A stretch of 64,000 bases of DNA from an uncultured Gammaproteobacteria bacterium (GTDB lineage Bacteria; Patescibacteriota; Patescibacteriia; Magasanikbacterales; GWA2-37-8). Each line of letters starts with the position of its first letter. The first letter of the stretch is position 1. Under the pieces are notes generated by a model. It worked only from the letters and a program-made list of their open reading frames with translations, did not search any database and had not been told where the DNA came from. The DNA lies in the NCBI GenBank assembly GCA_964561035.1, contig CAZLNR010000001.1:40577-104576 (forward strand), read 5' to 3'. Below, one piece after another: positions 21,185-60,037 of this stretch. The position numbers and the translations under genes were made by a program.

Positions 21185-22192
21185 ATGAGCGAGCGCAGGC
21201 CGTTATCAGGTGAATTGCCTGATGAACATGATATTGAAGAAGCATTTGAGCGTTTACAATCCCCGGAAGGTCCCGGGCAGGTTAGTAGAGATATTGCATT
21301 TGATTCTGAAGATGGACGCACTACTGTAGTGGTTGATGAGGATCTGGTTGGGCCTGAATCATCGAGTGATAGTGCTGGTAATGTAGAATTAAGTTTTGGT
21401 TTTCCAAGTGTTCAGCGCACTTTAGGCGGTGATGGCGCTGGTTTGACAGCAAGTGATTTTGCTTCATCTGTAGACGATTTGCACCCAACATATGACAAGG
21501 TTCTCAATGATGTTAATGCCATTGTGAAAGATACGACCGCAAAAGATTTGGTTGCGTTAGTTGGAGGCAGGATGGAAAAAACTCGTTCTGCTGACACTCA
21601 GGGTGTTATCAATTATACAGTTTTGCTCCGTTTGCTGGAAAGATATGCGCAAAATAAGGGGTATAAGAATAATCCTAATTTTTTCAAAATAGTTGAAGTT
21701 CTTAGAGCGATAGATAAGTTAGACTATAATTTAAGCGAACATATTTCTCTTAATAATGATTCGCCTCGCTCATACTATGTGTTGAGAAAAATTGCTTACA
21801 TTTTAAATTCAAAATCGCCAAAAGATATTTTGAAAATGGTTAGAAGCGGTGGAATAAATCCATATTTAATTGCGGAAGTTGGCAAACGATATCAGACAAG
21901 TAAAACTATCTCTCAAGATTTGAAAAATAAAGTGCAAGTTGTTCTTGATGAGCAAAGAGTATATGAACCATTCTATGATGTGGAAGATATGATAGACGAA
22001 AGTTTGGAAGATCAAAAACCGCTGCTTTCGTTATTGAAGGAAAAACATGTGAGCTTAGACACAGTCCGGGGTTTGTTAGAAGATTACAAATCTGGAGCTA
22101 GAAGACAAGAGCGTAAAATGCATAATTATAAAACAGCTCTTGAAACTATGTTAAGAGATCCACAGTCAATTATTTTATTGGAGGGTGTGTAA
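21185..22192 (+). CDS. Hypothetical protein inserted between grpE and dnaK (acidic disordered N-terminus plus helical C-domain)
   Basis: 335-aa ORF sitting 4 nt after the grpE stop and 55 nt before dnaK. No recognisable motif. Confidence 0.6.
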   Translation: MSERRPLSGELPDEHDIEEAFERLQSPEGPGQVSRDIAFDSEDGRTTVVVDEDLVGPESSSDSAGNVELSFGFPSVQRTLGGDGAGLTASDFASSVDDLHPTYDKVLNDVNAIVKDTTAKDLVALVGGRMEKTRSADTQGVINYTVLLRLLERYAQNKGYKNNPNFFKIVEVLRAIDKLDYNLSEHISLNNDSPRSYYVLRKIAYILNSKSPKDILKMVRSGGINPYLIAEVGKRYQTSKTISQDLKNKVQVVLDEQRVYEPFYDVEDMIDESLEDQKPLLSLLKEKHVSLDTVRGLLEDYKSGARRQERKMHNYKTALETMLRDPQSIILLEGV

Positions 22193-22247
22193 TTATTTAT
22201 AAACAATCTTGTTAATTTTTAAATAAATCTAATTTCAATATATTCAT

Positions 22248-24149
22248 ATGTCCAAAGTTCTCGGAATTGATCTTGGTACCACCAACAGCTGTGTTGCAGT
22301 CATTGAAGGTGGGCAGCCAAAAGTGTTAGAAAATAAAGAAGGTAATCGCACCACGCCATCTATTGTGGCTATGTCTAAAACCGGAGAGCGGTTGGTTGGT
22401 CAGTTGGCTAAGCGCCAGGCCGTAACTAACCCGCAAAATACTTTGTATTCAGTGAAGCGCCTTATTGGCCGCCGTTTTGAAGATGCTGAAGTGCAACGCG
22501 ATTTGTCGTTATTGCCGTTTAAAATTGTTAAAAGCGATGACAAGGTAAAAATTGAAATGCAGGGCAAAGAATATACCCCTCAAGAAATTTCTGCCATGGT
22601 ATTGCAAAAGTTAAAAAGCGATGCGGAAGAAAAATTGGGAGAAAAAATTACCGAAGCCGTTATTACCGTACCGGCATATTTTGACGACTCGCAAAGACAA
22701 GCTACTAAAGACGCGGGCACTATCGCAGGCTTAAATGTGTTGCGTATTATTAATGAACCAACCGCAGCCGCATTGGCATATGGTTTTGATAAGAAAAAAG
22801 ATCAAAAAATTGCAGTCTACGATTTGGGTGGCGGCACTTTTGATATCTCTATTTTGGAAGTGAGTGCCGACACAGTGCAGGTATTATCTACCAATGGCGA
22901 CACTCACTTGGGCGGCGATGATTTTGATCAAAAAATAATCTCATGGATTTTGGAAGAATTTAAAAAAGACCAAGGTATCGATTTGAGCAAAGATCCATTG
23001 GCCTTGCAGCGCATTAAAGAGGCTGCGGAAAAAGCCAAGATTGAGCTCTCTACAGCCCAAGAAACCGAAGTTAATCAGCCGTTTATTACTTCTGATTCTT
23101 CCGGACCAAAACATTTGGTAATGAAATTAACTCGCGCTAAATTGGAAGAGCTGGTTGGAGATTTGGTTGAAAAAACCTTAGTGCCAGTTCGCAAGGCATT
23201 GGAAGATGCAAAATTATCAGCTAACGATTTGCACGAAGTGGTGATGGTTGGTGGTATGACTCGCATGCCGCTCGTATTGCAAACTGTAGAAAAGTTTTTC
23301 AATAAAAAACCAAATATTAGTGTAAACCCAGATGAAGTGGTTGCTATCGGCGCAGCTGTTCAAGCTGGCGTGTTAAAAGGCGAAGTGCATGATGTGTTAT
23401 TGCTTGATGTTATTCCTCTATCATTTGGTTTAGAGACCATGGGCGGAGTAATGACTAAGCTTATCGAACGCAACACCACTATTCCGACATCAAAGAGCCA
23501 AGTATTTTCTACAGCAGCGGACAATCAGCCAGCGGTAGAAATTAATGTGTTGCAAGGTGAGCGCTCTATGGCAGCTGACAATAAAACACTTGGCCGATTT
23601 ATTTTGGATGGTATTCCACCGGCTCCACGCGGCGTACCGCAAGTAGAAGTAACTTTTGATATTGACGCTAATGGTATTTTAAATGTAAAGGCTAAAGATA
23701 AGGCTACCAACAAAGAACAGTCAATTCGCATTGAAGCTTCCACTGGCTTGTCCAAAGAAGAAGTGGAAAAAATGAAACAAGATGCTGAAGTGCATGCCGC
23801 TGAAGATAAAAAGAAGCAGGAGCTTATTGAGGCGCGCAACATTGCCGATACCATGGTGTATACTACCGAAAAAATGATGAAAGAAGTAGAAGAGAAAAAA
23901 GTGGCGGTGACTGATGATGAGAAAAATAAAATTAATGATGCATTAAAAGCCGTAAAAGAAGTTAAAGATAAAGATGATGTAGAGGCAATTAAAAAAACAT
24001 CAGAGGAGCTATCGAAAGTTGCTCAAGCGGTTGGTGCTAAAATGTATCAAGCCGGACAGGCTGGCCAGCCAGGCGCTGATGCTGCGGCTTCGGGCGGAGA
24101 AGAAAAGAAAGATGAACAGGGTCCGATTGAAGGTGAAGTGGTAAAATAA
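22248..24149 (+). CDS. dnaK: Chaperone DnaK (Hsp70)
   Basis: [31 protein letters not shown]; 633 aa with a C-terminal acidic tail. Confidence 0.95.
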
Positions 24150-24209
24150 TTATCATATTATTTTGTCTGCAACAAGGCGGTGGTATTTATATATAATTAA
24201 AATTATAAT

Positions 24210-24686
24210 ATGTCTGAGCATCAAGAGTCGGTCGGTTCTTTGGAAGCATTTAGATCGGAAATTCAGCGAATAGTTGACCGGCTTCGTCATGTAGATGGTA
24301 CGCTACAAAAAATTACCGACGTGAAAGAGTTGGATAATGACGCCTTAGCTATTTGGAATAATCTTAAAAATATTATACGTGATATTAGCCAGTTGGATGT
24401 AAACATGAACAATAAGGAGGTTCAAAAAAACTTTGATTATTTGTTAGAGAGAAGTCGTAAATTAGCCAATGATACAAAAAATTTGGCTGAAAGTAATGCG
24501 GCGCAATCAAAGAACTCGGCATGTGAATTTTATGCTTGGATTAATAATCGTATTCCTATAGGGCAAATTCAACTTGCGCTTGAGACTCTTGTGGACAGTG
24601 GTTCTGCTAAAAGTGCTGTAGAAGATTTGCAAGATTTGTCTAAAACTTCTATAGATTTATTAGCTGGGAAAGATGCGGCGGCATAA
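24210..24686 (+). CDS. Hypothetical helical protein inserted between dnaK and dnaJ
   Basis: 158-aa ORF, 60 nt after dnaK and 6 nt before dnaJ. No recognisable motif. Confidence 0.55.
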   Translation: MSEHQESVGSLEAFRSEIQRIVDRLRHVDGTLQKITDVKELDNDALAIWNNLKNIIRDISQLDVNMNNKEVQKNFDYLLERSRKLANDTKNLAESNAAQSKNSACEFYAWINNRIPIGQIQLALETLVDSGSAKSAVEDLQDLSKTSIDLLAGKDAAA

Positions 24687-24692
24687 AAGAAT

Positions 24693-25763
24693 ATGGCCAA
24701 CAAAGATTATTACAAAATTCTCGGCGTAGAAAAAAATGCTTCGGCTGATGAGATAAAAAAAGCATTTAAAAAAGCAGCTATGCAGCATCATCCAGACCGA
24801 CCAGGCGGAGATGAGGCAAAGTTTAAAGAAGTAAACGAAGCCTATCAGGTTTTAAGCGATACTGAAAAACGCCAGCGCTACGACCAATTCGGCTCTGATT
24901 TTGAACAGCAGGGCGGTTTTGGCAATGGGGCTGGGTGGGAAGATGTTATGAGTGCGTTCAGAGGCGGTGGTTTTTCCGGAGGGGATTTCGGCGATATTTT
25001 TGGCGACTTATTTGGCAGTAGGGGAGGCCAGCGTCAAAATCGCGGACAAGATATTCAGGTTGATGTAGAGATAGATTTCAAAGAAGCTGCGTTTGGTGCA
25101 GAAAAAGAAATTACTTTGCGCAAACAAAATGCTTGTGATATTTGCCGCGGCTCTGGAGCAGAGCCAGGGTCAAAAATGGAAAAATGTTCTACGTGCAATG
25201 GTCGCGGCCAGGTAACCAAAATACAACATACTTTTTTAGGCACGATGCAAGCAGCGGCTCCTTGTGATGCGTGTCAGGGCAGGGGAGAAAAACCTGCGAA
25301 AAAATGCAAGCATTGCCATGGGTCTGGGGTTGCGCAAAGCAATTCTAATATTAAAATTAAAATACCTGGAGGCATAGAAAGCGGGCAGTCTATTCGTTTA
25401 GATGGCTATGGTGAGGCTGCTTCATTTGGCGGTGTGCCGGGCAGTCTATATGTGCGTGTGCGCGTAAAACCGTTAGCCGGTTTTTCACGAGACGGTTCAG
25501 ATGTATACACAGAGCAAGAAATTAGTTTTGTGCAGGCGGTGCTGGGAGACAAAATTCAAGTGCAAACCCTTGATGAAATGGTAACGCTTGTCGTGCCAGA
25601 AGGTGTTGAGTCAGGGCAATTGATTCGTATTAAACACAAAGGCATGAACAAACTGGGGGGTGGTAATCGTGGAGACCACTATGTTAAAATAAAAATCAGG
25701 GTTCCTAAAAAGATTAGCAAAGACACAAAAAAACGTCTTGAAGAGTTGCGAGCGGAGCTTTAG
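24693..25763 (+). CDS. dnaJ: Co-chaperone DnaJ
   Basis: J-domain [12 protein letters not shown], Gly/Phe-rich linker, four CxxCxGxG zinc-finger repeats. Confidence 0.9.
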
Positions 25764-28323: not shown

Positions 28324-29676
28324 TTAATAATTGGTCTTCCAAATACCATCCTTGGTTTTGCTTATAAAGTATAATATTTTATTTTTGGTATCTGCCTGCG
28401 CTGTATGTATTTGTTCGGCTATAAGCTCATGGCTGACCAGATAGTATGGAAATAAAATCGTGCTGCGCTGGTTCCATATAAGGGCGAGTGTGTTATATTG
28501 ATCAAGCGGCAAAACAGTATGCAGTTGTTCACCCGATCTGCTTAGCAGCTGAGGCTCTTCGCCGTCGCTATATGTCCATAATTCCCATTGCGACCATAAT
28601 AGCCACCAGTTATTATATGGCGAAACAAAGAAGTTTGTCGTGTCAATTGGATGTAGCCCGTTTTGGTTGGCGAGTATGGCTTTTTTTCCATATAAATTGC
28701 CGATGAGTGCTGTATTTCCTTTGACTTTTAAAAGAGCCGGTTTGTTGCTATTTGGCTGGTCGTTGGTTGTAAAATAAGTTTTATTAACAGTTTGAACAAT
28801 AGTAGGGAAACCTAAAATATCTTTGGTTATTATATAGGCATCGGTATTGGTTGCGAATTGCAAAGCCCATAGTTCGTTTGCTTCCACAGACCAATCTAAA
28901 TATGTATTTGCGGTAACCAGCTGTGATTTATTGGTAGTCGGAGTGTATAAAAAAATCTGATTTTTTGTACTGTAATATACTTGAGGTTCGCTGGTTTGGT
29001 TCCAGATAAATTTTGTAATTGGCGTACCGGAGCCTATAGTAAATAATTTTTTAGTTTCCGCGTTTAATATGTATATCTGCGCAAACGGCTGTTCTGTCGG
29101 AGCGATGACGGCCAGGTTATTTTTTTCATCCCATGTATATTGGAAACGCAGGTCGCTGTCTAATCCGGTAATCTGGGTTTTTTCTTGAGTGCGCACATTC
29201 CATAGCCAAGTAAAAAAACCTTTATCAGTTTGAGTTGTAAATAGTATGTATGCGCCATCGGCTGATACAGAAAAGTCATTTATCGTGCCGCTTATCGCCA
29301 GTTCCAGTTTTGGTTTTTTTATTAAGCGTATTTCTTTAATATAATTTGTTTGTTTGTTTTTTACCTCTATTTCTTTGGACCAATCAATATACCCTTCGGC
29401 GCTTAGGCGGGTGTTATAAGTTGCGGGCGTGATGTTATTAAGGCGAATAGGCAATGTTTTCTGCAGTTTGATATTATTAAGGTAGGCAACCGATTCTTGC
29501 GGCTCTATATCAATACTGATTGATCCAGTTTCTTTGAGTAGGCCGTTATGCCAGTCATAGCGATAGCCGGCAGTATACATGATTAAAAGAGGGGATATGA
29601 TAAAAAAAGCGCTGATAAAAAAAATAAACATGAACTGTCTGATCGGCTTAGTGAATTTTGTTCCTGGATATTCCAT
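28324..29676 (-). CDS. Membrane-anchored beta-propeller (TolB/WD40-like) protein, unknown function
   Basis: N-terminal TM helix, then repeated W/Y-rich beta-strand blocks (..YILFTTQTDKGFFTWLWNV.., ..WNQTSEPQVYYS..). Confidence 0.5.
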   Translation of the reverse strand: MEYPGTKFTKPIRQFMFIFFISAFFIISPLLIMYTAGYRYDWHNGLLKETGSISIDIEPQESVAYLNNIKLQKTLPIRLNNITPATYNTRLSAEGYIDWSKEIEVKNKQTNYIKEIRLIKKPKLELAISGTINDFSVSADGAYILFTTQTDKGFFTWLWNVRTQEKTQITGLDSDLRFQYTWDEKNNLAVIAPTEQPFAQIYILNAETKKLFTIGSGTPITKFIWNQTSEPQVYYSTKNQIFLYTPTTNKSQLVTANTYLDWSVEANELWALQFATNTDAYIITKDILGFPTIVQTVNKTYFTTNDQPNSNKPALLKVKGNTALIGNLYGKKAILANQNGLHPIDTTNFFVSPYNNWWLLWSQWELWTYSDGEEPQLLSRSGEQLHTVLPLDQYNTLALIWNQRSTILFPYYLVSHELIAEQIHTAQADTKNKILYFISKTKDGIWKTNY

Positions 29677-29778: not shown

Positions 29779-31074
29779 ATGTCATATCTTATTATTAATG
29801 GGGGTAAAAAACTTAAGGGAGAGATTGTTAACCAATCTTCCAAGAATTCAGCTGTGGCGCTTCTGTGCGCATCTCTTTTAGTTCGCGGTAAAACCACTCT
29901 TACAGAAGTGCCTGATATTGAAGAGGTGAATCGTATTTTAGAATTACTTGCCAGTATGAGGGTTGTTATAGAAAAACCATCTCCTGGTACCTTGGTTGTT
30001 GATACGTCCGCAGGCATATCTTTAAAGTCAATTGATAAACATGCTTCCGAAGTAACCAGATCTTCTTTGTTGCTATTAGGCGCTCTAGCCTCTTTTCGTG
30101 CCAGTTATAAGTTATATAAATCTGGCGGCTGTCGTTTGGGCGAGCGCACTGTGCGTCCCCATTTATACGCGTTAGAAAAATTTGGAGTGAGCGTTGTTTC
30201 AAAACAGTCTTTTTATGAAGTGAAAAATAACGGCTTGCGTTCTGCCGAATTGGTTATGTATGAATCTGGTGACACGCCAACAGAAAACGCTATTATGGCC
30301 GCGGTCTTGGCACCCGGTAAAACTACCATTCGTATGGCTTCGGCAAATTATATGGTGCAAGACCTATGTTATTTCTTGCAAGAAGCCGGCGCACGCATTG
30401 AAGGTATTGGCACCACAACACTTGTTATAGATGGTGTGAAAGAATTGAAAAAAAGCGTACGTTATTCTGTAATGCCCGATCCGATTGCGGCTATGACATT
30501 TTTATCCGCAGCCATTGTAACCGGGTCCCACTTAACAATCAAAAATTGTCCGATGGATTTTTTGGATTTAGAATTATGTAAATTAGAAAAAATGGGTCAG
30601 AAGTTTACGGTTGTTTCACAGCCTCATGATCGGTATCGCATGGCAAGTATTGAAGTTTTTCCGTCAAAATTAAAAGCTTTGCCGGATAAAATTTATGGCC
30701 GGCCATTTCCTGGGTTAAATATAGATAACCTGCCTCTCTTCGCGCCTATTCTGGCTGTTGCTAAAGGACGCACATTGGTTCATGATTGGGCATATGAAAA
30801 TCGATCTGTATATTATCTCGAAATGCAAAAGCTGGGCGCTAAAGTAAATTTGCTTGATTTACACCGTGCCTGGATAGAAGGACCAACCACGTTTAAGGCA
30901 AACGAAGTTGTCTGTCCTCCGGCGTTACGCCCAGCAGTTAATATTCTTATCTGCATGATGGCTGCTAAAGGAAAGTCGGTGCTCCGTAATATCTATGTGA
31001 TAGATAGAGGCTACGAACATATTTACGAAGTATTTAATAAAGTTGGCGCCAGCATTACTCTGGTAAAAGAATAA
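29779..31074 (+). CDS. murA: UDP-N-acetylglucosamine 1-carboxyvinyltransferase
   Basis: EPT fold. The SKNSAVALLCASLL segment and the active-site Cys context SGGCRLGERTVRPH match MurA. Confidence 0.9.
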   Translation: MSYLIINGGKKLKGEIVNQSSKNSAVALLCASLLVRGKTTLTEVPDIEEVNRILELLASMRVVIEKPSPGTLVVDTSAGISLKSIDKHASEVTRSSLLLLGALASFRASYKLYKSGGCRLGERTVRPHLYALEKFGVSVVSKQSFYEVKNNGLRSAELVMYESGDTPTENAIMAAVLAPGKTTIRMASANYMVQDLCYFLQEAGARIEGIGTTTLVIDGVKELKKSVRYSVMPDPIAAMTFLSAAIVTGSHLTIKNCPMDFLDLELCKLEKMGQKFTVVSQPHDRYRMASIEVFPSKLKALPDKIYGRPFPGLNIDNLPLFAPILAVAKGRTLVHDWAYENRSVYYLEMQKLGAKVNLLDLHRAWIEGPTTFKANEVVCPPALRPAVNILICMMAAKGKSVLRNIYVIDRGYEHIYEVFNKVGASITLVKE

Positions 31075-47672: not shown

Positions 47673-49289
47673 TTAGGCGCTAGCTTCTATAGACTCTTCG
47701 GTCGGTAATGCCTTCTGTTTAAAGAGACGGTTGCCAACAGCTTGTTTAATTTGAATAAGTTCAGGGACTTTCAAAAGGTAACATATTACCAAATAAATTG
47801 CCAGACCCGCGATTGCAGCTGTTACTCCTTGTCCTAAAATGCCCAAAAAATAATTTTGGTTAAAAATTGCAGCTAAAGGTTCTTTGATAAGCTGTACAGT
47901 TACCCCCATACAAAGTGCTGCAATTGCCATGCGATACAGGGAGGAAAAAATTCGTTCGCCATCTATAGTTTTAGTTATATGTTTTAAAGAAATAAACAAT
48001 AAAATCATATTTAAAAACGAACCTACGGAAAAAGCCAGGGCTAAACCGGCGACACCGAATGGTTTCATAAGCAAGAGCGCCGCAATGATGGTGGTGAGTT
48101 CGGAAATAATACCGATTACAAATGGTGTTTTTGTGTCGGCTAGAGCGTAAAAGGCGCGCGCCAGAATTGGTATCAGGGCTTGGGCGCATAAACTTAAAGC
48201 AAAAAACGCCAGAGTGTCGGCGGTGGTGATGGTTGCGTTCCAGTCAAACTTTCCTGTGCCATAAATAATGCGTACAGTCTGCGCTCTTAGTAGTAAAATA
48301 ATTATGGATGATGGAATGATTAAAAATAATGTTTGTCGGATAGTGGAAGAGAGGTGTTTGATAAATTCCTCTTCGTTATTATTTGCAGCCGCAGCGGAAA
48401 GCAGGGGAAATACCGCCAAGGCAAACGGGATGCCGATAATTCCGATTGGCACAGCTTGAAGATTGTTGGCAAAATTAAAAACAGTGACACTGCCAACAGG
48501 CAAAAGTGATGCGAGTATGGTGATAATTACCAGGTTGAGCTGGCTGATAGCCAAGCCAAGCGTGCGAGGAATCATTAATCTGCCAACCGTGCGTGTGTAT
48601 CTGTCTTGTATGTTGATATACCAGTGCCATCTAAATCCATTTTTGTATGCGCTGTATGTTTGTAAAGAAACATGCAAAAAAGCGCCCAGTACTACGCCCC
48701 AAGCCAGCCCAGTAGTGCCAAAAAGAGGTACAAATATGACAGCTCCGGCAATAATGCCTAGGTTATAAAAAATAGGTGCTAGCGAGTATAAGAAAAAAGC
48801 CCGCAGTGATTGCAGGATGCCTCCAATTACCATGGAAATACCAAGCAATACGGTTGAACCAAACATAATCCGCGTCATTTGCGCCACTAGCTGTTGTGAA
48901 TCGGCGCTAAAGCCAGGAGCGATTATAGGGGCAAAAAAACCGGCAAAAGCGATGCAGATAATACTTAAAATAATAAGCGAAGCAGCAGTTATATTAAGAA
49001 CATTATTGGCAAGTTTCCATGCTTCAGTTTTGTCTTCGTTTTGATTGAATAATTTTGTAAAGGTAGGAATAAAACCGGCGCTTAAAGCCCCGATAATAAG
49101 CAGGTTATAAATTAGGTCTGGAATTTTAAAAGCCGCGTAATAGGCATCCATAGTAGGGCCGGCGCTAAAGTAGTGCGCAAAAATTCTGTCCCGAACCAAA
49201 CCGGTAATACGGCTTATGAGAGTGGCGACAGAGATAATGAGTGCGGCACCGGTTACAGATTTTGAACGGCTGTTAAAAAGTTTTATCAT
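47673..49289 (-). CDS. murJ: Lipid II flippase MurJ (MviN family)
   Basis: N-terminal ..[35 protein letters not shown].. and about 14 TM helices. Confidence 0.85.
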
Positions 49290-52100: not shown

Positions 52101-52153
52101 TTGACTACTGCAGATAAGTGGTATAAAATGGATTGTAGTGGAGTGAAGTGGGG
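52101..52153 (+). promoter_or_regulatory. Candidate dcw-cluster promoter (TTGACT-17-TATAAA) with three GTGG(N) direct repeats at 10/20-bp phasing (MraZ-box-like)
   Basis: ttgactactgcagataagtggtataaaatgg, then GTGG at 52118, 52138 and GTGGGG at 52148, immediately upstream of mraZ. Confidence 0.4.
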
Positions 52154-52198
52154 AAAATGCTTGTCTCTCTAATTTCACAAAACTATTTTCTATCTATG

Positions 52199-52627
52199 TT
52201 CATTGGCGAATATAGCCACAATTTAGACGATAAGGGCCGTATGGCTGTTCCGGCAAAATTTCGCCGTGATTTAAGCAAAGGGGCGGTTGTTACCCGAGGT
52301 TTGGATAATTGTTTGTTTTTATACACCAAAACCGAATGGGAAAAGCTTGCTGAGAAACTGGCAAACTTGCCAATCAGCCAATCCAACACCAGAGCGTTTT
52401 CACGCTTAATGTTGGCCGGAGCTATGGATGTGGAAATGGATAAGCAGGGTAGAGTAATCTTGCCTGAGTACTTACGCAGTTTTGCGGGTATTAAGAAAAA
52501 TTTGGTGATCGCAGGTTTGTATAATCGGTTAGAAATTTGGGATCAGGAATTGTGGAATACATATAAAAAACAAACTGAAGTTGAAAGTGGAGCAATAGCT
52601 GAGAAAATGGGGGAATTGGGAGTTTAA
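52199..52627 (+). CDS. mraZ: Transcriptional regulator MraZ
   Basis: MFIGEYSHNLDDKGRMAVPAKFR.. and a second DxxxR repeat (..QGRVILPEYLR..). The start at MFIGEY is preferred over the longer ORF. Confidence 0.85.
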   Translation, partial: FIGEYSHNLDDKGRMAVPAKFRRDLSKGAVVTRGLDNCLFLYTKTEWEKLAEKLANLPISQSNTRAFSRLMLAGAMDVEMDKQGRVILPEYLRSFAGIKKNLVIAGLYNRLEIWDQELWNTYKKQTEVESGAIAEKMGELGV

Positions 52628-52642: not shown

Positions 52643-53545
52643 ATGAAACACGTACCGGTTTTATTAGATGAAACGATCAGTTCTTTACAATTAGCGCCAG
52701 GAATGCGAGTTATTGATTGTACTCTCGGAGATGCGGGGCATAGCGAGGCTATGCTGGAAAAAATTTCTCCAAACGGCATGTTGCTTGGCATTGATGCAGA
52801 CCCGGAAGCGGTTTTGCGCGCCAAACGATTTTTATATCGCTTTGAAGATCGGGCTGTGCTGGTTCGAGAAAATTTTGCGCATATTGCTTCGATTGCTGCT
52901 GCGCATAATTTTACAGAAGTGCAGGGCGTACTTATGGATTTTGGCTGGTCCACGCCGCAGTTTGAAGAACGGGGAAGAGGGTTTAGTTTTCTAACCAATG
53001 AGCCGCTTGATATGCGTTATAGTGCTGGTGAAGGCCAAACCGCTGCGGAGATAGTCAACACTTACTCAGAACATGATCTGTATTTGATTTTTAAAATGTT
53101 GGGAGAAGAGCAGTTAAGCGCGGAAATTGCCGCCGCCATAGTGTTTTATAGAAAAAATAAACAAATTGAAACAACGGGCGAATTAACCGAGATCATTTTA
53201 TCCCAATATAGAAAGAAATTAAAAACAGATAAAGAAGTGCCATGGGTGGGCGGTATTCATCCAGCCACGAAAGTATTCCAAGCGCTGCGCATAGAGGCCA
53301 ATCAAGAATTGGAAAGCATTAAAAAAGTTTTGCCCGAAGCGCTGGAGCTATTGGCGCCGCATGGAAGATTGGCTGTTATCACATTTCATTCTTTGGAAGA
53401 CAGGATTGTAAAACAATATTTTAAATCACAAGAAAACAAAAAAATACGATTGGTAAATAAAAAACCGATTGTGGCCGGCGAAGAGGAGTTAAAAAATAAT
53501 CCTCGCGCCCGCAGTGCCAAATTACGAGTTGTAGAAAAAATATAA
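52643..53545 (+). CDS. rsmH: 16S rRNA (cytosine1402-N4)-methyltransferase
   Basis: HVPVLLDE, DCTLGDAGHS, FHSLEDRIVK. Confidence 0.9.
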   Translation: MKHVPVLLDETISSLQLAPGMRVIDCTLGDAGHSEAMLEKISPNGMLLGIDADPEAVLRAKRFLYRFEDRAVLVRENFAHIASIAAAHNFTEVQGVLMDFGWSTPQFEERGRGFSFLTNEPLDMRYSAGEGQTAAEIVNTYSEHDLYLIFKMLGEEQLSAEIAAAIVFYRKNKQIETTGELTEIILSQYRKKLKTDKEVPWVGGIHPATKVFQALRIEANQELESIKKVLPEALELLAPHGRLAVITFHSLEDRIVKQYFKSQENKKIRLVNKKPIVAGEEELKNNPRARSAKLRVVEKI

Positions 53546-53554: not shown

Positions 53555-53914
53555 ATGTCTATCAAACGCCAGATTTCACACAAATTACGAACCGTTGCTG
53601 TAGCATTTCAGTCTGATTTGCTGCCCGCTTGGATATTTTCGCCAGTGATGCGCCTGGGCTTATGTGCCATTATAGTATCTTTCGGTGCTGCCTATGTGGT
53701 AAATATCACCGCTTCAGCTACAAGCGGATATCAAATGCGTTTGTTGGAAAAACAAGCCAGCGCTTTGGAGTTGGATGTGCGCAAGCTGGAGGTTGAAATT
53801 GCGGACAATACCTCAATGTCCAGTATTGCTTCGCGCGTGCAAAAAACTCAAATGACTGAAGTTGCTGATGTTAAATTTTTGGCAGGCACAAACGGCACGG
53901 TGGCAAAAAAATAA
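53555..53914 (+). CDS. FtsL-like cell-division protein (single TM plus coiled coil)
   Basis: Position directly after rsmH; TM helix followed by a heptad-repeat segment (..LLEKQASALELDVRKLEVEIAD..). Confidence 0.5.
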   Translation: MSIKRQISHKLRTVAVAFQSDLLPAWIFSPVMRLGLCAIIVSFGAAYVVNITASATSGYQMRLLEKQASALELDVRKLEVEIADNTSMSSIASRVQKTQMTEVADVKFLAGTNGTVAKK

Positions 53915-53934
53915 TTTTCCATATTATCTTACTT

Positions 53935-53961
53935 AAAAAATCCTCAATATGAGGATTTTTT
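53935..53961 (+). terminator. Terminator-like hairpin
   Basis: aaaaaatcctcaatatgaggatttttt. Confidence 0.65.
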
Positions 53962-54349
53962 GTTGCGCGCTTATATGGTATACTATATATATCGTTATAT
54001 GATGATTCTTATTTTAGAAAAATTATTTTTGGAAGCAATACTTGATGTTTTTTATTTTCCGATTTGGTGGTATACCGCCGGTGCGGTTCGTGCCGGCAAA
54101 CGATGCTTGTTGTGGTTGGCGCGCGGCAACGAAACTTTGGCTCCAGGCATATGGTTGACGCATATTTTTGTGCCAATGTTTGGGCAATATGATTGGCAGG
54201 GCAGAATCGTTAGTTTTTTTATGCGCTTGGTTCAGATTATTTTTCGCACTGCCGCTTTAGCAGTTTGGCTGGCTTGCTGTTTTTTATTTTTTATGTTGTG
54301 GCTGGCACTGCCTTTGTTAGTATTTTACGGAATTTTATATGGAGTTTAA
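53960..54349 (+). CDS. Hypothetical small membrane protein, translationally coupled to the Clp-like gene
   Basis: 129 aa (start may be internal), 3 to 4 TM helices; its end overlaps the next ORF start by 11 nt. Confidence 0.4.
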   Translation: MLRAYMVYYIYRYMMILILEKLFLEAILDVFYFPIWWYTAGAVRAGKRCLLWLARGNETLAPGIWLTHIFVPMFGQYDWQGRIVSFFMRLVQIIFRTAALAVWLACCFLFFMLWLALPLLVFYGILYGV

Positions 54350-57104
54350 GAAAAATCAACCTTTACCGCTTCTTGTTTGCGACGTTTGCAGCGGCGTGGG
54401 CAGGCGTGGTTTTAAAAAATGCGCGCAGTGCCATGGTATGGCTGCAGGGTTAAGTTTGCGAGGCAGCTGGCTATATTGGGGTTTTCCGCTTGATACGTAT
54501 AATCTCAGGCTGCAGGCAGGAAGGCGAGCACTCAATATAATTAGGTTTATTACCGTGCTGGTGCTGTGGCTCAATGCCTGGATATGGACGGCGCTGTTTG
54601 TATACAAACAAGGCGTGTTTGCAGTATTAAGACATCCAAAACAATGGACGGCATTTGTTGCTTCATTGGATAAATGGTCTGTTTTCTTATTTTGGTTTGG
54701 AGTAGTAGCGATGCTGTATTTGTGGTATCGCATATTGCGCCAGAAAGAACCTTTTGATAAAACGGTTGGATTATTTACTTTTTACAATAATCCATCAAAA
54801 GAACAAGATCTCACAATTGGTTCCTGGTCCGAAGCTGCACGCGTCTCAAGAAAAAAGAAAAAAAATATCGCGATTGGATTTACTCCCGAAGCTCTGGCTT
54901 CGCTCGGAAAAGCATATCTATATGCCAATAAAATGCGTTCACCGGCCATGGAGTCTGCTCATATATTTTATGCGCTGCTTTCTTGCAATCGTATTAGTAA
55001 TATTTTTATCAGACTCGGCATACCGTCAAGTGTTCTCTTAAAAGAAGCCGAAGCCTTATGTGTAAATAATACGCCAACTCATGCTGGAGTGTCGCCGCGA
55101 CTTTCCGATGATGTTCTGCAAATCATTTTTCAATCATATGAAAATGCGTTTGCGGCCAAGCAGCCATACGTTAGTGTAACCGAATTGCTGATGTTCGCAA
55201 TCGCAGCCAACCCGGCAATTCAAAATATTTTATTTAATTATGATATTTCCGAAAGACAGTTAGCCAATGTGGTTGCATGGGCGCGTATGAAAGAAAAAAT
55301 GCATCGGGATTACCTTGTTTTTAAAAAAGCCGTAAAACATCATTCAAAGTATGGTATGGATAGAGCTATGACTGCTTTGGCTACGCCATATTTAAATAGT
55401 TTTAGCACTGATGTGACCGCGTTGGCGCATTATGGTCAGTTAGAGTCATGTGTGGCGCGTGGTAATGAGTTAGATGAAATATTTCAAATGGTTGAAGCTG
55501 GAGAAAAAGGCATATTGATGGTTGGAGAAACTGGTGTGGGAAAAAATACCATCGTTGAAGGCATAGCTCAGCGTATGGTTGCAGGAGAGGTGCCCGAGCT
55601 GTTAAAAGATAAGCGTTTAGTGCGTTTGAGTATTTCAGCGCTCTTGGCAGGTGCAAGTCCTGAAGGGGTAGCCGAGCGAGTGCAGCGTATTATGGAAGAA
55701 ACCGCGCGAGCGCGAAATGTTATTTTGTATATTAGCGGTATTGACGAGTTGATAGGTATAACGGTGGGTCAAGAGGGCGGCTTGGATATGGCAGATACAT
55801 TGCGTGAATTTTTAGGCGATAAAAATATAATCGTATTTGCCACCACAACCCGAGAACGATATGCGCAGCATGTGCTTGGTTCTTCGCTGAAAAGTATATT
55901 TACTATGGTTGAAATAGGCGAGATGAACGAAGATCAGGCTATACAGGTTTTAGAATCTCGGGCTGGATTTTTGGAGTATAAACATTCGGTATTTTTTTCA
56001 TATGCCGCTATAGAGACATGCGTAGAGTTTGCCAAAAAGTTTTTCCACGATGCTCCTTTGCCGGTTAGCGCGCTTGAACTTTTGACAGAATCAGCCAGCT
56101 ACACTAAAAATAAAAAAGGTTCTCATGCAATTATTACCAAGGAAGAGGTTGCTTTGGTGGTTACCGCAAAAACTAAAATTCCGGTGGCTGCAATTTCTGG
56201 CAATGAATCTGAAAAGCTGATGCGTTTAGAAGAAGAAATGCGCAAGCGAGTGGTGGGGCAAGAAGAAGCGGTGCAGGCGGTGGCCGGAGCTTTGCGCCGA
56301 GCGCGCGCTGATTTGCATGCGCGCAAGCGACCGATGGCAAGCTTTTTATTTTTAGGTCCAACCGGTGTCGGTAAAACCGAGCTTGCTAAAACCATCGCCG
56401 ATATTTATTTTGGCGGAGAAAATCGCATGATTCGGCTGGATATGAGTGAGTATCAGGATAAAACCAGTCTTTATCGCCTTATTGGCATGCCGGGCTCTCA
56501 AGGCACGGGTATCTTAACCGAAGCTGTACATAAAGCGCCGTTTTCTTTGGTGTTGCTTGATGAAATTGAAAAAGCAGATCCGGATATTTTAAATTTATTT
56601 TTACAGGTAATGGATGATGGCAGGCTCACGGATAGCGCTGGTCGCGTTTTTGATTTCACTAATGTTATTATCATTGCAACCTCAAATGCCGGCACATTGT
56701 TTGTCCGCGAGCAGGCGCGAGCGGGCATGTCGCATGACGAGTTGTTAAATCAGTTGCTACATGAAGAATTGCATCATTATTTCCGCCCAGAGTTTTTAAA
56801 TCGGTTTGATGGTATTGTACTGTTCAATTCTCTTGAACGAGATGCGATTAAGCAGGTGGCGCGGCTTATGTTTGACAGTATTGCCAAAGATATGGAAAAT
56901 AAAGGGGTTCATATTTCGGCCACAGAGGAGGCGCTTGATTTTTTGGCCGATGCCGGATTTGATCCTGAGTTTGGCGCTCGTCCGATGCGTCGCGCTTTGC
57001 AGGAAAAAGTTGAAAATAAAATGGCAGAACTATTTTTGCAAGGCAAATTAAAACGAGGCAGCAGCGTTACAATTGGCGCGCAAGGAGCTTTGTTTATTGA
57101 TTAG
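54339..57104 (+). CDS. Membrane-anchored Clp/Hsp100-family AAA+ ATPase with N-terminal CxxC..CxxC zinc ribbon and two TM helices
   Basis: Zinc ribbon CDVC..CAQC (aa 14-31). TM helices IIRFITVLVLWLNAWIWTALFVY and VFLFWFGVVAMLYLWYRIL. Two Clp_N-like repeats. NBD1 has an atypical Walker A, GETGVGKNT. NBD2 is canonical (GPTGVGKTE, LLDEIEKA, sensor-2 GARPMRRAL). No M-domain and no IGF/LGF ClpP loop were seen. Confidence 0.8.
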   Translation: MEFKKNQPLPLLVCDVCSGVGRRGFKKCAQCHGMAAGLSLRGSWLYWGFPLDTYNLRLQAGRRALNIIRFITVLVLWLNAWIWTALFVYKQGVFAVLRHPKQWTAFVASLDKWSVFLFWFGVVAMLYLWYRILRQKEPFDKTVGLFTFYNNPSKEQDLTIGSWSEAARVSRKKKKNIAIGFTPEALASLGKAYLYANKMRSPAMESAHIFYALLSCNRISNIFIRLGIPSSVLLKEAEALCVNNTPTHAGVSPRLSDDVLQIIFQSYENAFAAKQPYVSVTELLMFAIAANPAIQNILFNYDISERQLANVVAWARMKEKMHRDYLVFKKAVKHHSKYGMDRAMTALATPYLNSFSTDVTALAHYGQLESCVARGNELDEIFQMVEAGEKGILMVGETGVGKNTIVEGIAQRMVAGEVPELLKDKRLVRLSISALLAGASPEGVAERVQRIMEETARARNVILYISGIDELIGITVGQEGGLDMADTLREFLGDKNIIVFATTTRERYAQHVLGSSLKSIFTMVEIGEMNEDQAIQVLESRAGFLEYKHSVFFSYAAIETCVEFAKKFFHDAPLPVSALELLTESASYTKNKKGSHAIITKEEVALVVTAKTKIPVAAISGNESEKLMRLEEEMRKRVVGQEEAVQAVAGALRRARADLHARKRPMASFLFLGPTGVGKTELAKTIADIYFGGENRMIRLDMSEYQDKTSLYRLIGMPGSQGTGILTEAVHKAPFSLVLLDEIEKADPDILNLFLQVMDDGRLTDSAGRVFDFTNVIIIATSNAGTLFVREQARAGMSHDELLNQLLHEELHHYFRPEFLNRFDGIVLFNSLERDAIKQVARLMFDSIAKDMENKGVHISATEEALDFLADAGFDPEFGARPMRRALQEKVENKMAELFLQGKLKRGSSVTIGAQGALFID

Positions 57105-57110
57105 AGTAGT

Positions 57111-58130
57111 ATGATGTTGTATTTTTTTATATCTTTTGTTATTTCGGTTTTTTTAACCTTTTTAATAAAAAAATTTGCGTATGGCGCTGGGGTAGTGGAT
57201 ACGCCAGATGCCAGCCGCCATTTGCATGCCAAGCCAACTCCGTTGTTGGGTGGGTTGGCAATTTTTTTGTCTTTTTGGGTTACAGTCTGCACTGTAATGG
57301 TATATTTTCCGGTATATGGCATAGAGAAAATCATAGACCCCCTTATGGTTGCTCTGGTCGGATCTCTCATTATTATGCTTGTAGGTATTGCAGATGACCT
57401 TCATCCATTTTCAGCTACAATACGTTTGCCTCTGGTGATGGTGGCAATACTCATTGTAACATTGTTTTTTCCTTGGCTAACAAAGATTACTAATCCGTTG
57501 GGTGGGTATCTTTTTTTAGCAAATGCTGCCGGCAGTGTGTTGGTATTTTGCTGGTTTTTGGGCATGACATATACCACAAAAATTTTAGATGGTTTAGATG
57601 GTTTGGCAACGGGGGTTGTTTCCATAGGCGCGTTTATTATTGTTTTGCTAACCGCCGTTACAAAGTTTTACCAGCCTAATGTTAGCTTGGTAGCTCTTAT
57701 ATTTCTTGGGTCTTGTCTCGGTTTTTTGTTGTTTAATTTTCATCCTGCTCAAATATTTTTAGGGGAAAGCGGCAGCATGTTTGTCGGGTTTATGCTGGCA
57801 GTTTTAGCAGTAATCGGCGGAGGTAAGCTGGCCACTGCGTTGTTGGTTATGGCTATACCGGTCTTGGATGTTTTGCGGGTTATGTATATCAGAATACGCA
57901 AAAAACAAAGCATTTTTTCCGGAGATAGAGAGCATTTGCATTTTAGAATGGTAGATGCAGGGTTTACCCAAAAACAATCTGTATTATTTTTATACGCAAT
58001 TTCTTTTTTCTTTGGCATAGCTACGCTGTTTTTGCAGAGTTTGCAAAAAGTATATGCGCTGGCAGTGTTAATTATTATTATGGTTGTGTTAAGCCATGTT
58101 GTTGGCAAAAATAAAAAAACATATGTCTGA
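57111..58130 (+). CDS. Polyprenyl-phosphate N-acetylhexosamine-1-phosphate transferase (MraY/WecA family GT4; MraY favoured by context)
   Basis: KPTPLLGGLAIF, GIADDL, LDGLDGLATG, FLGESGSMFVGF motifs; about 10 TM helices. Confidence 0.75.
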   Translation: MMLYFFISFVISVFLTFLIKKFAYGAGVVDTPDASRHLHAKPTPLLGGLAIFLSFWVTVCTVMVYFPVYGIEKIIDPLMVALVGSLIIMLVGIADDLHPFSATIRLPLVMVAILIVTLFFPWLTKITNPLGGYLFLANAAGSVLVFCWFLGMTYTTKILDGLDGLATGVVSIGAFIIVLLTAVTKFYQPNVSLVALIFLGSCLGFLLFNFHPAQIFLGESGSMFVGFMLAVLAVIGGGKLATALLVMAIPVLDVLRVMYIRIRKKQSIFSGDREHLHFRMVDAGFTQKQSVLFLYAISFFFGIATLFLQSLQKVYALAVLIIIMVVLSHVVGKNKKTYV

Positions 58131-58599
58131 TCAGGTAAAAACATTTAAAAAATGGCATCTGGCAGCTTTTGCGATTATTATAATTTTGGCGTTGGGTAAT
58201 AAAATATATGGATATATATGGCCTAAAACCAATATTTATATTAGCCAGGAAAAAATACGCGTTCTGGTGGCGGATACGGCTGCGCACAGGTTTAAGGGGT
58301 GGAGCGGTCGTGCCGATATGGGGAAGTATGGCGGAATGCTGTTTGTTTTCCCGCAACCCGATCGGCATGCCATGGTAATGCGAGATATGTATTTTGCTCT
58401 TGATATAATTTGGCTAAATCAAGGTAAAATAATAGATATTGCGCCATCTCTGGCTCCACAGGCAGGTGTGGCAGAAGATCAATTGACCGTGTATCGTCCT
58501 CGTGGTGTTGCGGACATGGTTTTAGAAGTTCCGGCCGGTTTTGCGGAGCGGGCGGGTTTAAAAATAGGGGATACGGTTGAAATTGTTGACAAAATTTAG
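58123..58599 (+). CDS. DUF192 domain protein
   Basis: N-terminal TM helix then a DUF192-like core (..VLVADTAAHRFKGWSGRADMGKYGGMLFVFPQ..). The start at MSDQ is preferred; it overlaps the previous gene. Confidence 0.55.
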   Translation: MSDQVKTFKKWHLAAFAIIIILALGNKIYGYIWPKTNIYISQEKIRVLVADTAAHRFKGWSGRADMGKYGGMLFVFPQPDRHAMVMRDMYFALDIIWLNQGKIIDIAPSLAPQAGVAEDQLTVYRPRGVADMVLEVPAGFAERAGLKIGDTVEIVDKI

Positions 58600-58655
58600 T
58601 TTTTATCGTATACTAATAGCGTTATTATTCTAACTCAATTATTCTGACTTATTTT

Positions 58656-58961
58656 ATGTACGCAGTTATTGCTACTGGTGGTAAACAATATTTGGTAAAA
58701 AATGGCGACGTGTTGAAAGTTGAAAAGCTCAAAGCTGAAGAAGGATCAACTGTTGTATTTGATAAAGTATTGTTGACTGCCGATGAAGATGGAAAAAATG
58801 TTAAAATCGGACAGCCGTATTTGGATGGTGTAACTGTTACTGCCACACTTGAAAAACAAGGCAAAGAACGCACCTTGCGCGTAGAAAAATTTAAACGCAA
58901 AGTTCGCTACCACAAAGTACACGGACAAAGACAGAGATTCAGCTTGGTAAAAATCGCTTAA
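58656..58961 (+). CDS. rplU: 50S ribosomal protein L21
   Basis: MYAVIATGGKQYLVKNGDVLKVEKL.. matches L21 throughout. Confidence 0.9.
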   Translation: MYAVIATGGKQYLVKNGDVLKVEKLKAEEGSTVVFDKVLLTADEDGKNVKIGQPYLDGVTVTATLEKQGKERTLRVEKFKRKVRYHKVHGQRQRFSLVKIA

Positions 58962-58973
58962 TACAATTAAATT

Positions 58974-59001
58974 TAAAAACCACCCTATAAAGGTGGTTTT
59001 T
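58974..59001 (+). terminator. Rho-independent terminator after rplU
   Basis: aaaaaccacc-ctataa-aggtggttttt. Confidence 0.8.
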
Positions 59002-59056
59002 AAATTACTCACAGCCAGTCCTTGACAGATATGTTGCAATATGGTAAGGTCTTTTT

Positions 59057-59362
59057 GCCTACGTAAGTAGGCTCTTGTTATCCGGTATATTCTCCCGACC
59101 CCTTAAGTGAAAAAATATTTTTCTTTTAAGGGGTCGAAGGCGAATCCGGATCAGCCTGTCGATCTCCGGCTGGGACATTGTGAGTAGCATACGGGGAGAG
59201 CCCCAAGTTTTCGTCGCAAAGCAAGGAAGAGGTGACGACTTCTTTATAAGCAGACTTCTTCATGAGGAATGCTTAAAACTTGCTGGTGCGCAGGCTCACG
59301 ATGCAGATCCAGTCCGGTCTTGGGGGTGCGGGCCACTCGCGCTCGCACCCCCCTTCTTTTTC
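59057..59362 (+). ncRNA. Candidate structured non-coding RNA (~300 nt), identity unresolved. The strand is inferred from the promoter. RNase P RNA is one hypothesis, from weak P4-like strings.
   Basis: Promoter TTGACA (59022..59027), 17-bp spacer, extended -10 TGgTAAGGT. Multiple stable hairpins follow: gcctac-gtaa-gtaggc, an 11-bp stem cgaccccttaa..ttaaggggtcg, gggg-agag-cccc, and a 9-bp GC stem gggggtgcg..cgcaccccc followed by a T-run. No convincing ORF. It sits between two terminators, in a convergent gap between rplU and recR. Confidence 0.4.
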
Positions 59363-59396
59363 TTTAAAACCTTTTTTAAAGGGTTCTAAAGAAAAC

Positions 59397-59427
59397 AAAA
59401 AATTCCGATAAGTTCGGAATTTTTTGT
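59397..59427. terminator. Terminator hairpin (serves recR on the minus strand)
   Basis: aaaattccgat-aag-ttcggaatttttt. Confidence 0.7.
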
Positions 59428-59437
59428 TTATTATTTT

Positions 59438-60037
59438 TTATTTTCCAGTTCTGTTTTTGATGGCGCTGCCAAGGGTTATTTCATCCGCATATTGCAAGTC
59501 GCTGCCCATAGGCAAGCCTCGCGCCAGCCGTGTTACAGAAATAGCGGGGTTTTTTTCTTTAATTTTTTTCTCAAGAAATAACATGGTTGTCTCTCCGGGC
59601 AAGTCGGGGTTAAAAGCTAAAATTATTTCCTTAAGCCCGGTATTTTTTTCAAGGCGCGCAAATAATTCTTTAATTTTTAATTTATCCATATCATCGCTGC
59701 CTGGCTCTATAACACCGCGCAGCACATGATAGAGGCCGCTAAAAATTCCGGTGCGTTCAATAACATGCATATCTTGCGGTTCGCAGACAATGCAAATTAC
59801 GGATTGATCTCTGTTTTTGTTTGAGCAGATAGCGCACGGATTAGTGTCGCCAAAGTCCCAGCATTGTTCGCAGCTTTTTACATTGTCTATTAACTCTTTG
59901 AGCGCCAGTGTAATTTCCGCAACTTCTTTTTTGCCGGATTTAAGCAAATAAAAAGCAAAGCGCTCGGCGGTTCGCTGTCCGACGCTTGGCAATTTGCGGA
60001 ATGCGCTAATTAAATGTTGAATTGACTTTGAGTACAT
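59438..60037 (-). CDS. recR: Recombination protein RecR
   Basis: HhH (LPSVGQRTAERFAFYLL), C4 zinc finger CEQC..CAICS, Toprim segment. Confidence 0.9.
   Translation of the reverse strand: MYSKSIQHLISAFRKLPSVGQRTAERFAFYLLKSGKKEVAEITLALKELIDNVKSCEQCWDFGDTNPCAICSNKNRDQSVICIVCEPQDMHVIERTGIFSGLYHVLRGVIEPGSDDMDKLKIKELFARLEKNTGLKEIILAFNPDLPGETTMLFLEKKIKEKNPAISVTRLARGLPMGSDLQYADEITLGSAIKNRTGK

Follow-up and report, generated by a model that had tools for sequence, protein, structure and literature searches.

The canonical division and cell wall (dcw) cluster has the gene order mraZ-rsmH-ftsL-ftsI-murE-murF-mraY-murD-ftsW-murG-murC-ddl-ftsQAZ, and its splitting into sub-clusters or its full dispersal has already been documented for several phyla (PMC8871954). 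ClpC (B. subtilis and S. aureus ClpC, M. tuberculosis ClpC1), a class I Hsp100 unfoldase that uses MecA/McsB-type adaptors, is built of Clp_N, D1, D2 and D2-small domains. In ClpE, a C4 zinc ribbon stands before two AAA+ modules. In bacteria, the AAA+ protein FtsH is held in the membrane by two transmembrane (TM) helices at its N-terminus, and its ATPase is cytoplasmic. We have analyzed a 64,000-nucleotide stretch of DNA, hereafter the window (contig CAZLNR010000001.1 of assembly GCA_964561035.1, positions 40,577 to 104,576), in which a gene for a 921-aa Clp-like double-AAA+ protein, anchored by two TM helices as FtsH is and headed by a zinc ribbon as ClpE is, stands close downstream of the first three genes of a dcw cluster. 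The gene is preceded by that of a small membrane protein (sTM) and followed by the gene of a GT4 transferase.

We consider it probable, at roughly 60%, that two conserved units lie here side by side; this estimate includes the assignment of the transferase as WecA-like. The first unit would be the surviving dcw head, mraZ-rsmH-ftsL-like, which has its own promoter-like site and, in the window, a terminator-like hairpin after the ftsL-like gene. The second would be a Patescibacteria-specific envelope module that consists of sTM, the membrane-anchored ClpC-like ATPase, a WecA/TagO-type polyprenyl-phosphate N-acetylhexosamine-1-phosphate transferase (PNPT) and a DUF192 protein. All genes between 52.1 and 59.0 kb are read from the + strand, in the following order:

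52196-52627, + strand: mraZ (PF02381, 141 bits; TIGR00242, 155 bits)
52643-53545, + strand: rsmH, for the 16S rRNA m4C1402 methyltransferase (PF01795, 339 bits; TIGR00006, 315 bits)
53555-53914, + strand: ftsL-like gene, 119 aa, one TM helix and a coiled-coil-like tail, placed right after rsmH
53999-54349, + strand: sTM, small membrane protein, 116 aa from an ATG (the mechanically called open reading frame (ORF) begins at TTG 53960)
54339-57104, + strand: Clp-like double-AAA+ protein, 921 aa (PF07724, 174 bits; PF10431, 88 bits)
57111-58130, + strand: GT4 transferase (PF00953, 95 bits, cutoff 27)
58096-58599, + strand: DUF192 protein with an N-terminal membrane anchor (PF02643, 91.5 bits; hydrophobic aa 16-42)
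58656-58961, + strand: rplU (L21), a conserved downstream neighbour (translation read; syntenic orthologs match PF00829)

Spacing is tight from rsmH to the GT4 gene (successively a 9-nt gap, a 45-nt gap, an 11-nt overlap and a 6-nt gap). The start given for mraZ is the homology-supported one: the mechanical ORF begins at GTG 52148, and the alignment with E. coli MraZ begins at ATG 52196. For rplU, the consensus scan found a promoter-like site of its own at 58586-58614.

The order of these genes was compared among relatives of the window. Full-length homologues of the ATPase at 48-95% identity form more than 120 clusters, and a profile of its first 180 residues, searched against 1.8 billion representatives, retrieved 213 clusters (~200 at 50% identity). 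Eighty metagenome loci were retrieved through the sTM gene, and 83 loci were scored with the window proteins. The sTM gene was followed by the Clp-like gene in all 81 informative loci. At 45 of 51 loci the 3 kb upstream of this pair contained rsmH, accompanied by mraZ and usually by ftsL; one further locus, which carries a 6-kb FG-GAP insertion, brings the count to 46 of 51. On the downstream side, 26 of 40 loci had the GT4 gene adjacent to the ATPase gene and 32 of 40 had it within 5 kb; elsewhere an Acyl_transf_3 or VanW gene is interposed downstream of the pair. The DUF192 gene, the last of the conserved module, comes after the GT4 gene in most loci. Dozens of independent contigs, from metagenomes and from genomes, show the same arrangement, and three long contigs at 54-66% identity keep the same order from lepA/murJ through dnaB.

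Five loci have no dcw head, and these carry the most divergent ATPases (25-47% identity). Upstream neighbours in three of them are an ATP synthase operon (L015), a DHH phosphoesterase gene (L018), and a helicase gene with a nucleoside kinase gene (L076). sTM-AAA+-GT4 is retained in each of these, together with DUF192 in L015 and L018; no DUF192 was found at the L076 locus. The remaining two are L073, which keeps GT4 and DUF192, and L084, which stops within the ATPase gene. Since the divergent headless loci keep the module, the deepest conserved unit is the sTM gene plus the Clp-like gene, usually with GT4 and DUF192. The position beside mraZ-rsmH-ftsL is stable within one large clade. The preliminary description of this DNA had turned to synteny in relatives as a check: the order does recur, with the head present at 46 of 51 loci, but the remote members place the pair and GT4 at other loci. 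A mobile or defence element was also considered as an explanation for the pair, and was rejected on account of its fixed position among housekeeping genes in ~85 loci.

The head itself resembles the canonical dcw cluster in its order, with mraZ and rsmH adjacent and co-oriented, and in having a promoter-like site upstream. The ftsL-like product has a hydrophobic segment at aa 22-56 by hydropathy and matches NF053549 FtsL_Actino below threshold (22.7 bits, cutoff 55); its orthologs give sub-threshold matches to PF04999/PF19579. The gene is kept at 119-121 aa in relatives, and the position, size and single TM helix of its product fit FtsL. Three elements were found in the noncoding DNA around the head:

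52101-52129, + strand: promoter-like TTGACT-17-TAAAAT upstream of mraZ (consensus match only)
52137-52151, + strand: tandem pentamers AGTGG AGTGA AGTGG, between the promoter-like -10 element and the mraZ start
53934-53962, + strand: 13-bp hairpin with a U run, terminator- or attenuator-like, in the spacer between the ftsL-like gene and sTM

A terminator-like hairpin precedes the promoter-like site at the mraZ start, as judged by the consensus scan. The pentamers resemble MraZ operator repeats and are a possible candidate operator. One more AGTGG is present 20 nt upstream of the triplet (region 52117-52151). When the whole window was scanned for AGTGR, no enrichment at large was seen, and only the local triplet in front of mraZ stood out.

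The hairpin in the ftsL-sTM spacer has a dG of -13.1 kcal/mol and a z-score of -3.3, and none of 200 shuffled sequences folded as well. Similar terminator-like hairpins were found in the same spacer of 19 of 53 relatives by a crude scan. The junction between ftsL and the pair also hosts insertions: a 2030-aa FG-GAP gene in L004 and an extra ORF in L003. The L004 insertion (3504-9596, the same as L053), on a 963-kb contig, encodes an FG-GAP/PG_binding_1 protein located between the ftsL-like gene and sTM. Conversely, within the pair, the sTM and ATPase genes share 11 nt in the window as well as in L003 and L018, and the ATPase and GT4 genes are separated by 6 nt. Taken together, the hairpins, the junction insertions and the sTM/ATPase overlap favour two neighbouring units with possible read-through between them, at the level of consensus matches.

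The preliminary description took the transferase for a MraY-like marker of a broken ftsL-mraY interval, and this assignment is not sustained. When scored against NCBIfam models, all four orthologs examined matched TIGR02380 (WecA) at 104-130 bits and TIGR00445 (MraY) at only 60-85 bits; the window protein itself reached 59.8 bits with the MraY model (cutoff 192), and the three other orthologs reached 67-85. The WecA cutoff was missed too (104 bits for the window protein vs 326), so that the protein is WecA-like rather than a demonstrated WecA ortholog. BLASTP gave the same ranking, with 87 bits over 287 aa (29% identity) for E. coli WecA and 50 bits over 176 aa for E. coli MraY. In a joint alignment, the GT4 protein has the cytosolic-loop motif of WecA, DRxH(I/L)Hx(R/L) (DRxHLHxR; REHLHFR here), and does not have the MraY loop insertion, the PxHHHxE motif or the extra N-terminal helix of MraY. 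The catalytic DD and DGxDGL motifs are present, with D95, D96, D160, G161, D163, G164 and L165 invariant in the alignment. It thus shares with WecA/TagO the Pfam GT4 domain, DD, DGxDGL and the DRxHLHxR loop motif, and differs from them in that the asparagines of NxxNxxDG are replaced (TTKILDG). In related loci, other dcw orthologs score 90-200 bits against their E. coli counterparts, vs 55-66 bits for GT4 against MraY. By these profile and alignment criteria the gene is that of a WecA/TagO-type PNPT and not mraY, an assignment to an enzyme type and not to a sugar donor. Since the transferase gene is not mraY, nothing has been cut out "between ftsL and mraY".

The 921-aa protein was described at the outset as a membrane-tethered Clp-like protein encoded after a small membrane protein, and two hydrophobic helices and a Pfam AAA_2 match bear this out. 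Its domains are as follows:

54372-54476, + strand: zinc ribbon, aa 12-46, C14 C17 C28 C31, CxxCxGxG-like (beta strands in the AlphaFold2 model; weak DnaJ_CXXCXGXG match)
54528-54737, + strand: TM hairpin with TM1 at aa 64-89, an outside loop of ~24 aa and TM2 at aa 114-133 (hydropathy)
54867-55337, + strand: Clp_N-like helical domain, aa 177-333 (weak PF02861 match, E 0.013; all-helical in AlphaFold2)
55416-56138, + strand: D1 AAA+ module, aa 360-600, degenerate (alignment to B. subtilis ClpC)
56196-57101, + strand: D2 AAA+ module with ClpB_D2-small, aa 620-921 (alignment to ClpC)

The AlphaFold2 model (built with 35 homologs; mean pLDDT 80.9) consists of the ribbon, two long helices, a poorly ordered linker, the helical Clp_N-like domain and two AAA+ modules. 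All four ribbon cysteines are invariant in 26 aligned N-terminal sequences and in the remote members, and one of 35 family members (P0068) has no zinc ribbon. The hairpin, modeled as helices 53-90 and 112-136, is conserved across the family. Since the ATPase needs ATP, both ends of the hairpin must be cytoplasmic, which would make the zinc ribbon cytoplasmic as well. PF02861 (Clp_N) is recorded for nearly all homologs.

Catalytic and substrate-handling motifs were called by residue alignment to B. subtilis ClpC, and the calls were compared with 35 family members and with five remote members of full length. In D1, Walker A reads GETGVGKN, with GK[N/R/K/M] in most of the family and the canonical form (GKT in ClpC) in a few members. 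The DE of Walker B has become SG (most of the family has [HN]N, and D[NH] also occurs), the pore loop KYRGE reads SPEG ([ST]P[AE]G in the family), and SI stands in place of the RR arginine fingers, which are lost family-wide. In D2, on the other hand, Walker A and B, sensor 1, the arginine finger and sensor 2 (GARP) are intact and nearly invariant, in agreement with ClpC. The D2 pore loop is altered from PPGYVGY to PGSQGTG, which is four residues shorter and has no aromatic residue (family PG-x-[KQ]-G-[TS]-G). At the position of the ClpP tripeptide [LIV]-G-[FL] the protein has AGM, and the family has [ANTKQ]-[GN]-[VLMIT] with a non-hydrophobic first residue. The M-domain is absent: the alignment leaves out ClpC residues ~445-458 and has overlapping query segments, and the ClpA model TIGR02639 aligns in one stretch, 188-912.

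The combination of Pfam AAA_2, AAA_lid_9 and ClpB_D2-small is that of a class I Clp/Hsp100 double module. ClpC comes first both in phmmer searches against PDB (E 1.5e-124) and in Foldseek (E 1.7e-55), followed by ClpB and ClpA, and public records name the protein ClpC, ClpA or "AAA family ATPase". The cutoffs of the NCBIfam ClpA, ClpB, ClpC, ClpV, ClpG and ClpK models were all missed twofold or more (the best scores being 521 vs 1232 for ClpB and 483 vs 993 for ClpA). Judged from its motifs and profile scores, the ATPase is a Clp/Hsp100-family protein that belongs outside every named subfamily and fails several defining features of ClpA, ClpB, ClpC and ClpE.

ClpC has the same Clp_N, D1, D2 and D2-small domains at 31-38% identity, but the ClpC M-domain (~412-470) and VGF tripeptide have no counterpart here, both pore-loop tyrosines, the D1 Walker B DE and the arginine fingers are missing, and the zinc ribbon and the two TM helices are extra. 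In place of MecA/McsB-type adaptors, the ATPase is encoded with a small membrane partner. ClpA likewise has no middle domain, and ClpE, whose PDB entry 29hb was matched with E 2.5e-112, shares the ribbon ahead of two AAA+ modules; however, ClpA and ClpE are soluble proteins, and their IGL/VGF ClpP loops, active D1 rings and aromatic pore loops are all missing from the protein studied here. FtsH, the likeness in membrane anchoring notwithstanding, has a single classic-clade AAA module, an M41 protease domain and aromatic pore loops, as opposed to a Clp/Hsp100 double module with no protease domain. A remote family member gave a weak match to PF23569 (NBD_SMAX1) on D1, and a faint Torsin Pfam match was seen on D2 of the ATPase. 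Plant SMAX1/D53 and torsins are Clp/Hsp100-related folds, with degenerate nucleotide-binding domains or without pore-loop aromatics, that no longer have the features for threading and serve instead as scaffolds or as remodellers associated with membranes; they are eukaryotic, have another domain order and other partners and no zinc ribbon or TM hairpin, so that the comparison is one of analogy only.

Shorter members of the family also exist. Variants of ~600 aa (P0161, P0162, P0181, and L016 at 1470-3272) have the ribbon, the TM hairpin, Clp_N and a degenerate D1, and no D2, and therefore contain no intact ATPase. In L016 a GT4 gene still comes after the D2-less variant. At 19963-25763, 30 kb upstream, the window encodes hrcA-grpE-(335-aa ORF)-dnaK-(158-aa ORF)-dnaJ (translations read); a DnaK system is thus present, though the Clp-like protein has no DnaK-docking M-domain.

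No Pfam or NCBIfam match was obtained for sTM. A profile made from six members retrieved 2174 clusters (at 90% identity), none of which has a Pfam domain, and the named ones are all hypothetical or uncharacterized proteins. These named matches come from Patescibacteria, Magasanikbacteria or Parcubacteria, with the sole exception of a "Udaeobacter" record that is probably mislabelled. Residues P21, W23, W24, G28, W52, F57, P59, M60, G62, Q63, D65, G68, S72, R76, W101 and P105 are invariant. The AlphaFold2 model (pLDDT 91.8) consists of two long helices, and a fold search with it retrieved generic helical hairpins only (phasin, designed bundles), which is uninformative. We conclude that sTM represents a family specific to Patescibacteria, whose gene invariably precedes that of the Clp-like protein.

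With respect to function, the ATPase would assemble as a membrane-tethered ring and may act with sTM as a membrane complex. D1 would serve as a non-catalytic nucleotide-binding tier or a purely structural one, and D2 would be the only motor that hydrolyses ATP. Since there is no ClpP loop, the ATPase is not expected to feed ClpP; since there is no M-domain, it should not receive substrates handed over from DnaK; and since the aromatic pore-loop paddles are lost, threading of polypeptides through an axial pore is improbable. Conformational change driven by D2, together with the surfaces of sTM, the zinc ribbon and Clp_N, might take the place of threading. Its clients or partners could be found among the membrane enzymes that make lipid-linked glycans and the cell wall, for instance the adjacent PNPT and, in some genomes, FtsW; these enzymes would be assembled, regulated or extracted. 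That the protein is a membrane-tethered, non-threading remodeller of envelope-synthesis enzymes is our tentative guess, possible rather than probable. A bolder version, in which sTM and the ATPase form a Patescibacteria-specific machine with a single active ring that controls or assembles PNPT and FtsW and assumes the organising roles of lost dcw or divisome parts, is doubtful.

The locus differs from the canonical dcw cluster in that all other members are missing from it, with only a murG fragment present elsewhere in the window. When 15 E. coli dcw proteins were used as tblastn queries against the window (E<0.01), only mraZ, rsmH, the GT4 gene (with MraY, 55 bits) and a murG fragment at 7-588 were found; no ftsI, murE, murF, murD, ftsW, murC, ddl, ftsQ, ftsA or ftsZ was detected in the 64 kb. 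The fragment is the C-terminal part of murG, located at the window edge 53 kb upstream, and murA (29779-31074) and murJ (47673-49289, - strand) each stand alone (translations read; the MurJ ortholog in L001 matches PF03023). In a 94%-identical relative and in six more, murG lies directly after dnaG-rpoD with no mur or fts neighbours. That murG is the end of a mur cluster was considered and rejected, since relatives place it after dnaG-rpoD. In two long contigs with the window's mraZ...rplU arrangement, ftsW is ~70-215 kb away; there it is preceded by a 117-aa membrane ORF, with rpmA back-to-back, and sugar epimerase genes, a gene for a PGI/SIS protein and four GT2 genes come after it. In two loci murE is ~8 kb from murG, and in one locus a class B penicillin-binding protein gene lies upstream of uvrA-uvrC-mraZ. 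Across ~1 Mb of related loci, which represent a part of any genome, E. coli queries retrieved no mraY, and only murE (two loci), one penicillin-binding protein, and ftsW/murG. The preliminary description was right about the gene order without ftsI, ftsW and mur ligases, as open reading frames, domains and tblastn confirm, about murA, murG and murJ lying elsewhere in the window, and about the dispersal of peptidoglycan genes, which the positions of murG, ftsW, murE and the penicillin-binding protein gene in relatives support. The remaining peptidoglycan and division genes of this clade are spread over the chromosome, and dcw is reduced here to its first three genes.

Two observations concern the 117-aa-ftsW block. 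In the window, rplU is not followed by rpmA (58961-59438), and in relatives rpmA is found on the opposite strand beside the 117-aa ORF, ftsW and surface-glycan genes (L103 9043-9327, L104 9275-9550). In other genomes, the 117-aa-ftsW block comes directly after the Clp-like gene. This placement points to a rearrangement in which a breakpoint fell where the ATPase gene ends.

Several points weigh against the reading of two neighbouring units. In ~90% of loci the pair directly follows the head in the same orientation, only 45-200 nt away, so that read-through or functional coupling is possible, and in five loci the ATPase gene is followed by an FtsW/RodA gene (PF01098, 292-329 bits), with murG next in L062, which resembles a true dcw context and is itself a likeness to the canonical cluster, where ftsW and murG are likewise downstream. 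No bona fide mraY was located in the lineage within the ~1 Mb of related loci, and that the GT4 protein acts as a divergent MraY, as this could imply, is unlikely. The functional inference comes from gene neighbourhood and motif loss only, hexamerisation and nucleotide binding by D1 being predictions. The first two points are also what speaks for recruitment of the ATPase and sTM into the division operon, where they would be co-transcribed with mraZ-rsmH-ftsL, act on the divisome and functionally replace ftsI...murD. The preliminary description had raised such a recruitment of the chaperone, and its positional part stands: the pair is next to the co-oriented head in 46 of 51 loci, with a spacer of 45 nt here, four loci (L039, L049, L059, L064) have the pair followed by the 117-aa membrane ORF and FtsW, a fifth reads mraZ-rsmH-ftsL-[pair]-ftsW-murG, and the consensus scan saw no strong terminator between mraZ and rplU. 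However, the most divergent members keep the pair and GT4 with no mraZ, rsmH or ftsL nearby, unrelated genes are inserted at the junction, a hairpin with a U run follows ftsL here and similar ones do so in 19 of 53 relatives, all of which speaks rather for two units; and the ftsW adjacency resembles a rearrangement, with the same 117-aa-ftsW-PGI-GT2 block standing beside rpmA in genomes of the GT4 type. We therefore regard recruitment as unlikely, though deserving of weight.

Were the GT4 gene instead a mraY that has diverged but still functions, this would be a true dcw cluster into which the ATPase had been inserted, between ftsL and mraY. The protein does belong to the PNPT superfamily and to MraY's own Pfam family, its PDB sequence matches are MraY structures only, and no other MraY-like gene was seen in the related loci, a weak argument given the fraction of any genome that they cover. 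Both the TIGR00445 scores far below cutoff, with the WecA model ahead in four of four orthologs, and the BLASTP ranking stand against it, as do the WecA-type loop motif, the absent MraY insertion and helix, and the 55-66 bits where other dcw orthologs reach 90-200; we find this highly improbable. It is also improbable, if somewhat less so, that the ATPase is an ordinary housekeeping ClpC or ClpB whose position is accidental in a compact genome and bears no envelope link. Such a protein would account for the 31-38% identity to ClpC and ClpB, the common fold and the ClpC or ClpA annotation in source records, and small genomes do retain long syntenic blocks of unrelated genes (here rplU, recR, ybaB and dnaB). 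It would not be expected to lose the pore tyrosines, M-domain, ClpP loop and D1 catalysis motifs family-wide, to conserve a zinc ribbon and a membrane hairpin, or to be paired invariantly with a conserved membrane protein from sometimes overlapping genes, nor would its link to GT4 persist in lineages where every other neighbour has changed. Two neighbouring units, a dcw head and an envelope module, thus remain our preferred reading.

The composition of the window is like that of Patescibacteria (candidate phyla radiation, CPR), with ~41% G+C, compact genes and strong strand bias, and the nearest named relatives of its proteins are metagenome-assembled genomes of Candidatus Magasanikbacteria. 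Genes 55-94% identical to those of this Magasanikbacteria-like window also occur in public records that bear the titles "uncultured Gammaproteobacteria bacterium" and "Candidatus Udaeobacter sp." (L007, L009-L013; P0011/P0292), and the assembled genomes with these titles are probably mislabelled. A GC-rich island at 1100-1750 (0.56-0.66 vs 0.41 for the genome), located between a tRNA-Val gene and a permease gene, contains mechanical ORFs on both strands only; an Rfam scan of it gave chance-level matches only. The island is kept in the exact relatives L005 and L006, where a 188-aa gene with no Pfam match is called. Contigs carrying the permease gene are only 6-7 kb long, and none extends past the upstream edge of the window. 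ARAGORN called an 89-nt tRNA-Gln at 28925-29013, inside a 450-aa ORF (28324-29676, - strand); Rfam did not confirm the call, which is probably a false positive.

In the literature searched on dcw genes of CPR/Patescibacteria, FtsL, ClpC and Magasanikbacteria, we found no description of this ATPase family or arrangement. Fragmentation of dcw is ordinary; the pair of sTM and ATPase is apparently undescribed, is conserved in the ~85 related loci examined and is flanked nearly always by division or cell-wall genes. An annotation trap is corrected as well: the transferase gene beside the dcw head is not mraY, and the ATPase that records call "ClpC" or "ClpA" is neither. For AAA+ biology, the family offers a natural test of what a Clp ring can do without threading: the protein is bolted to the membrane, its first ring is presumably dead and it lacks the pore loops on which the action of Hsp100 proteins depends. 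For ultra-small episymbiotic bacteria, which are largely uncultured and whose division and envelope assembly are poorly understood, it provides a concrete, testable candidate, and its interest would rise considerably if a role in the envelope or in division control proved true.

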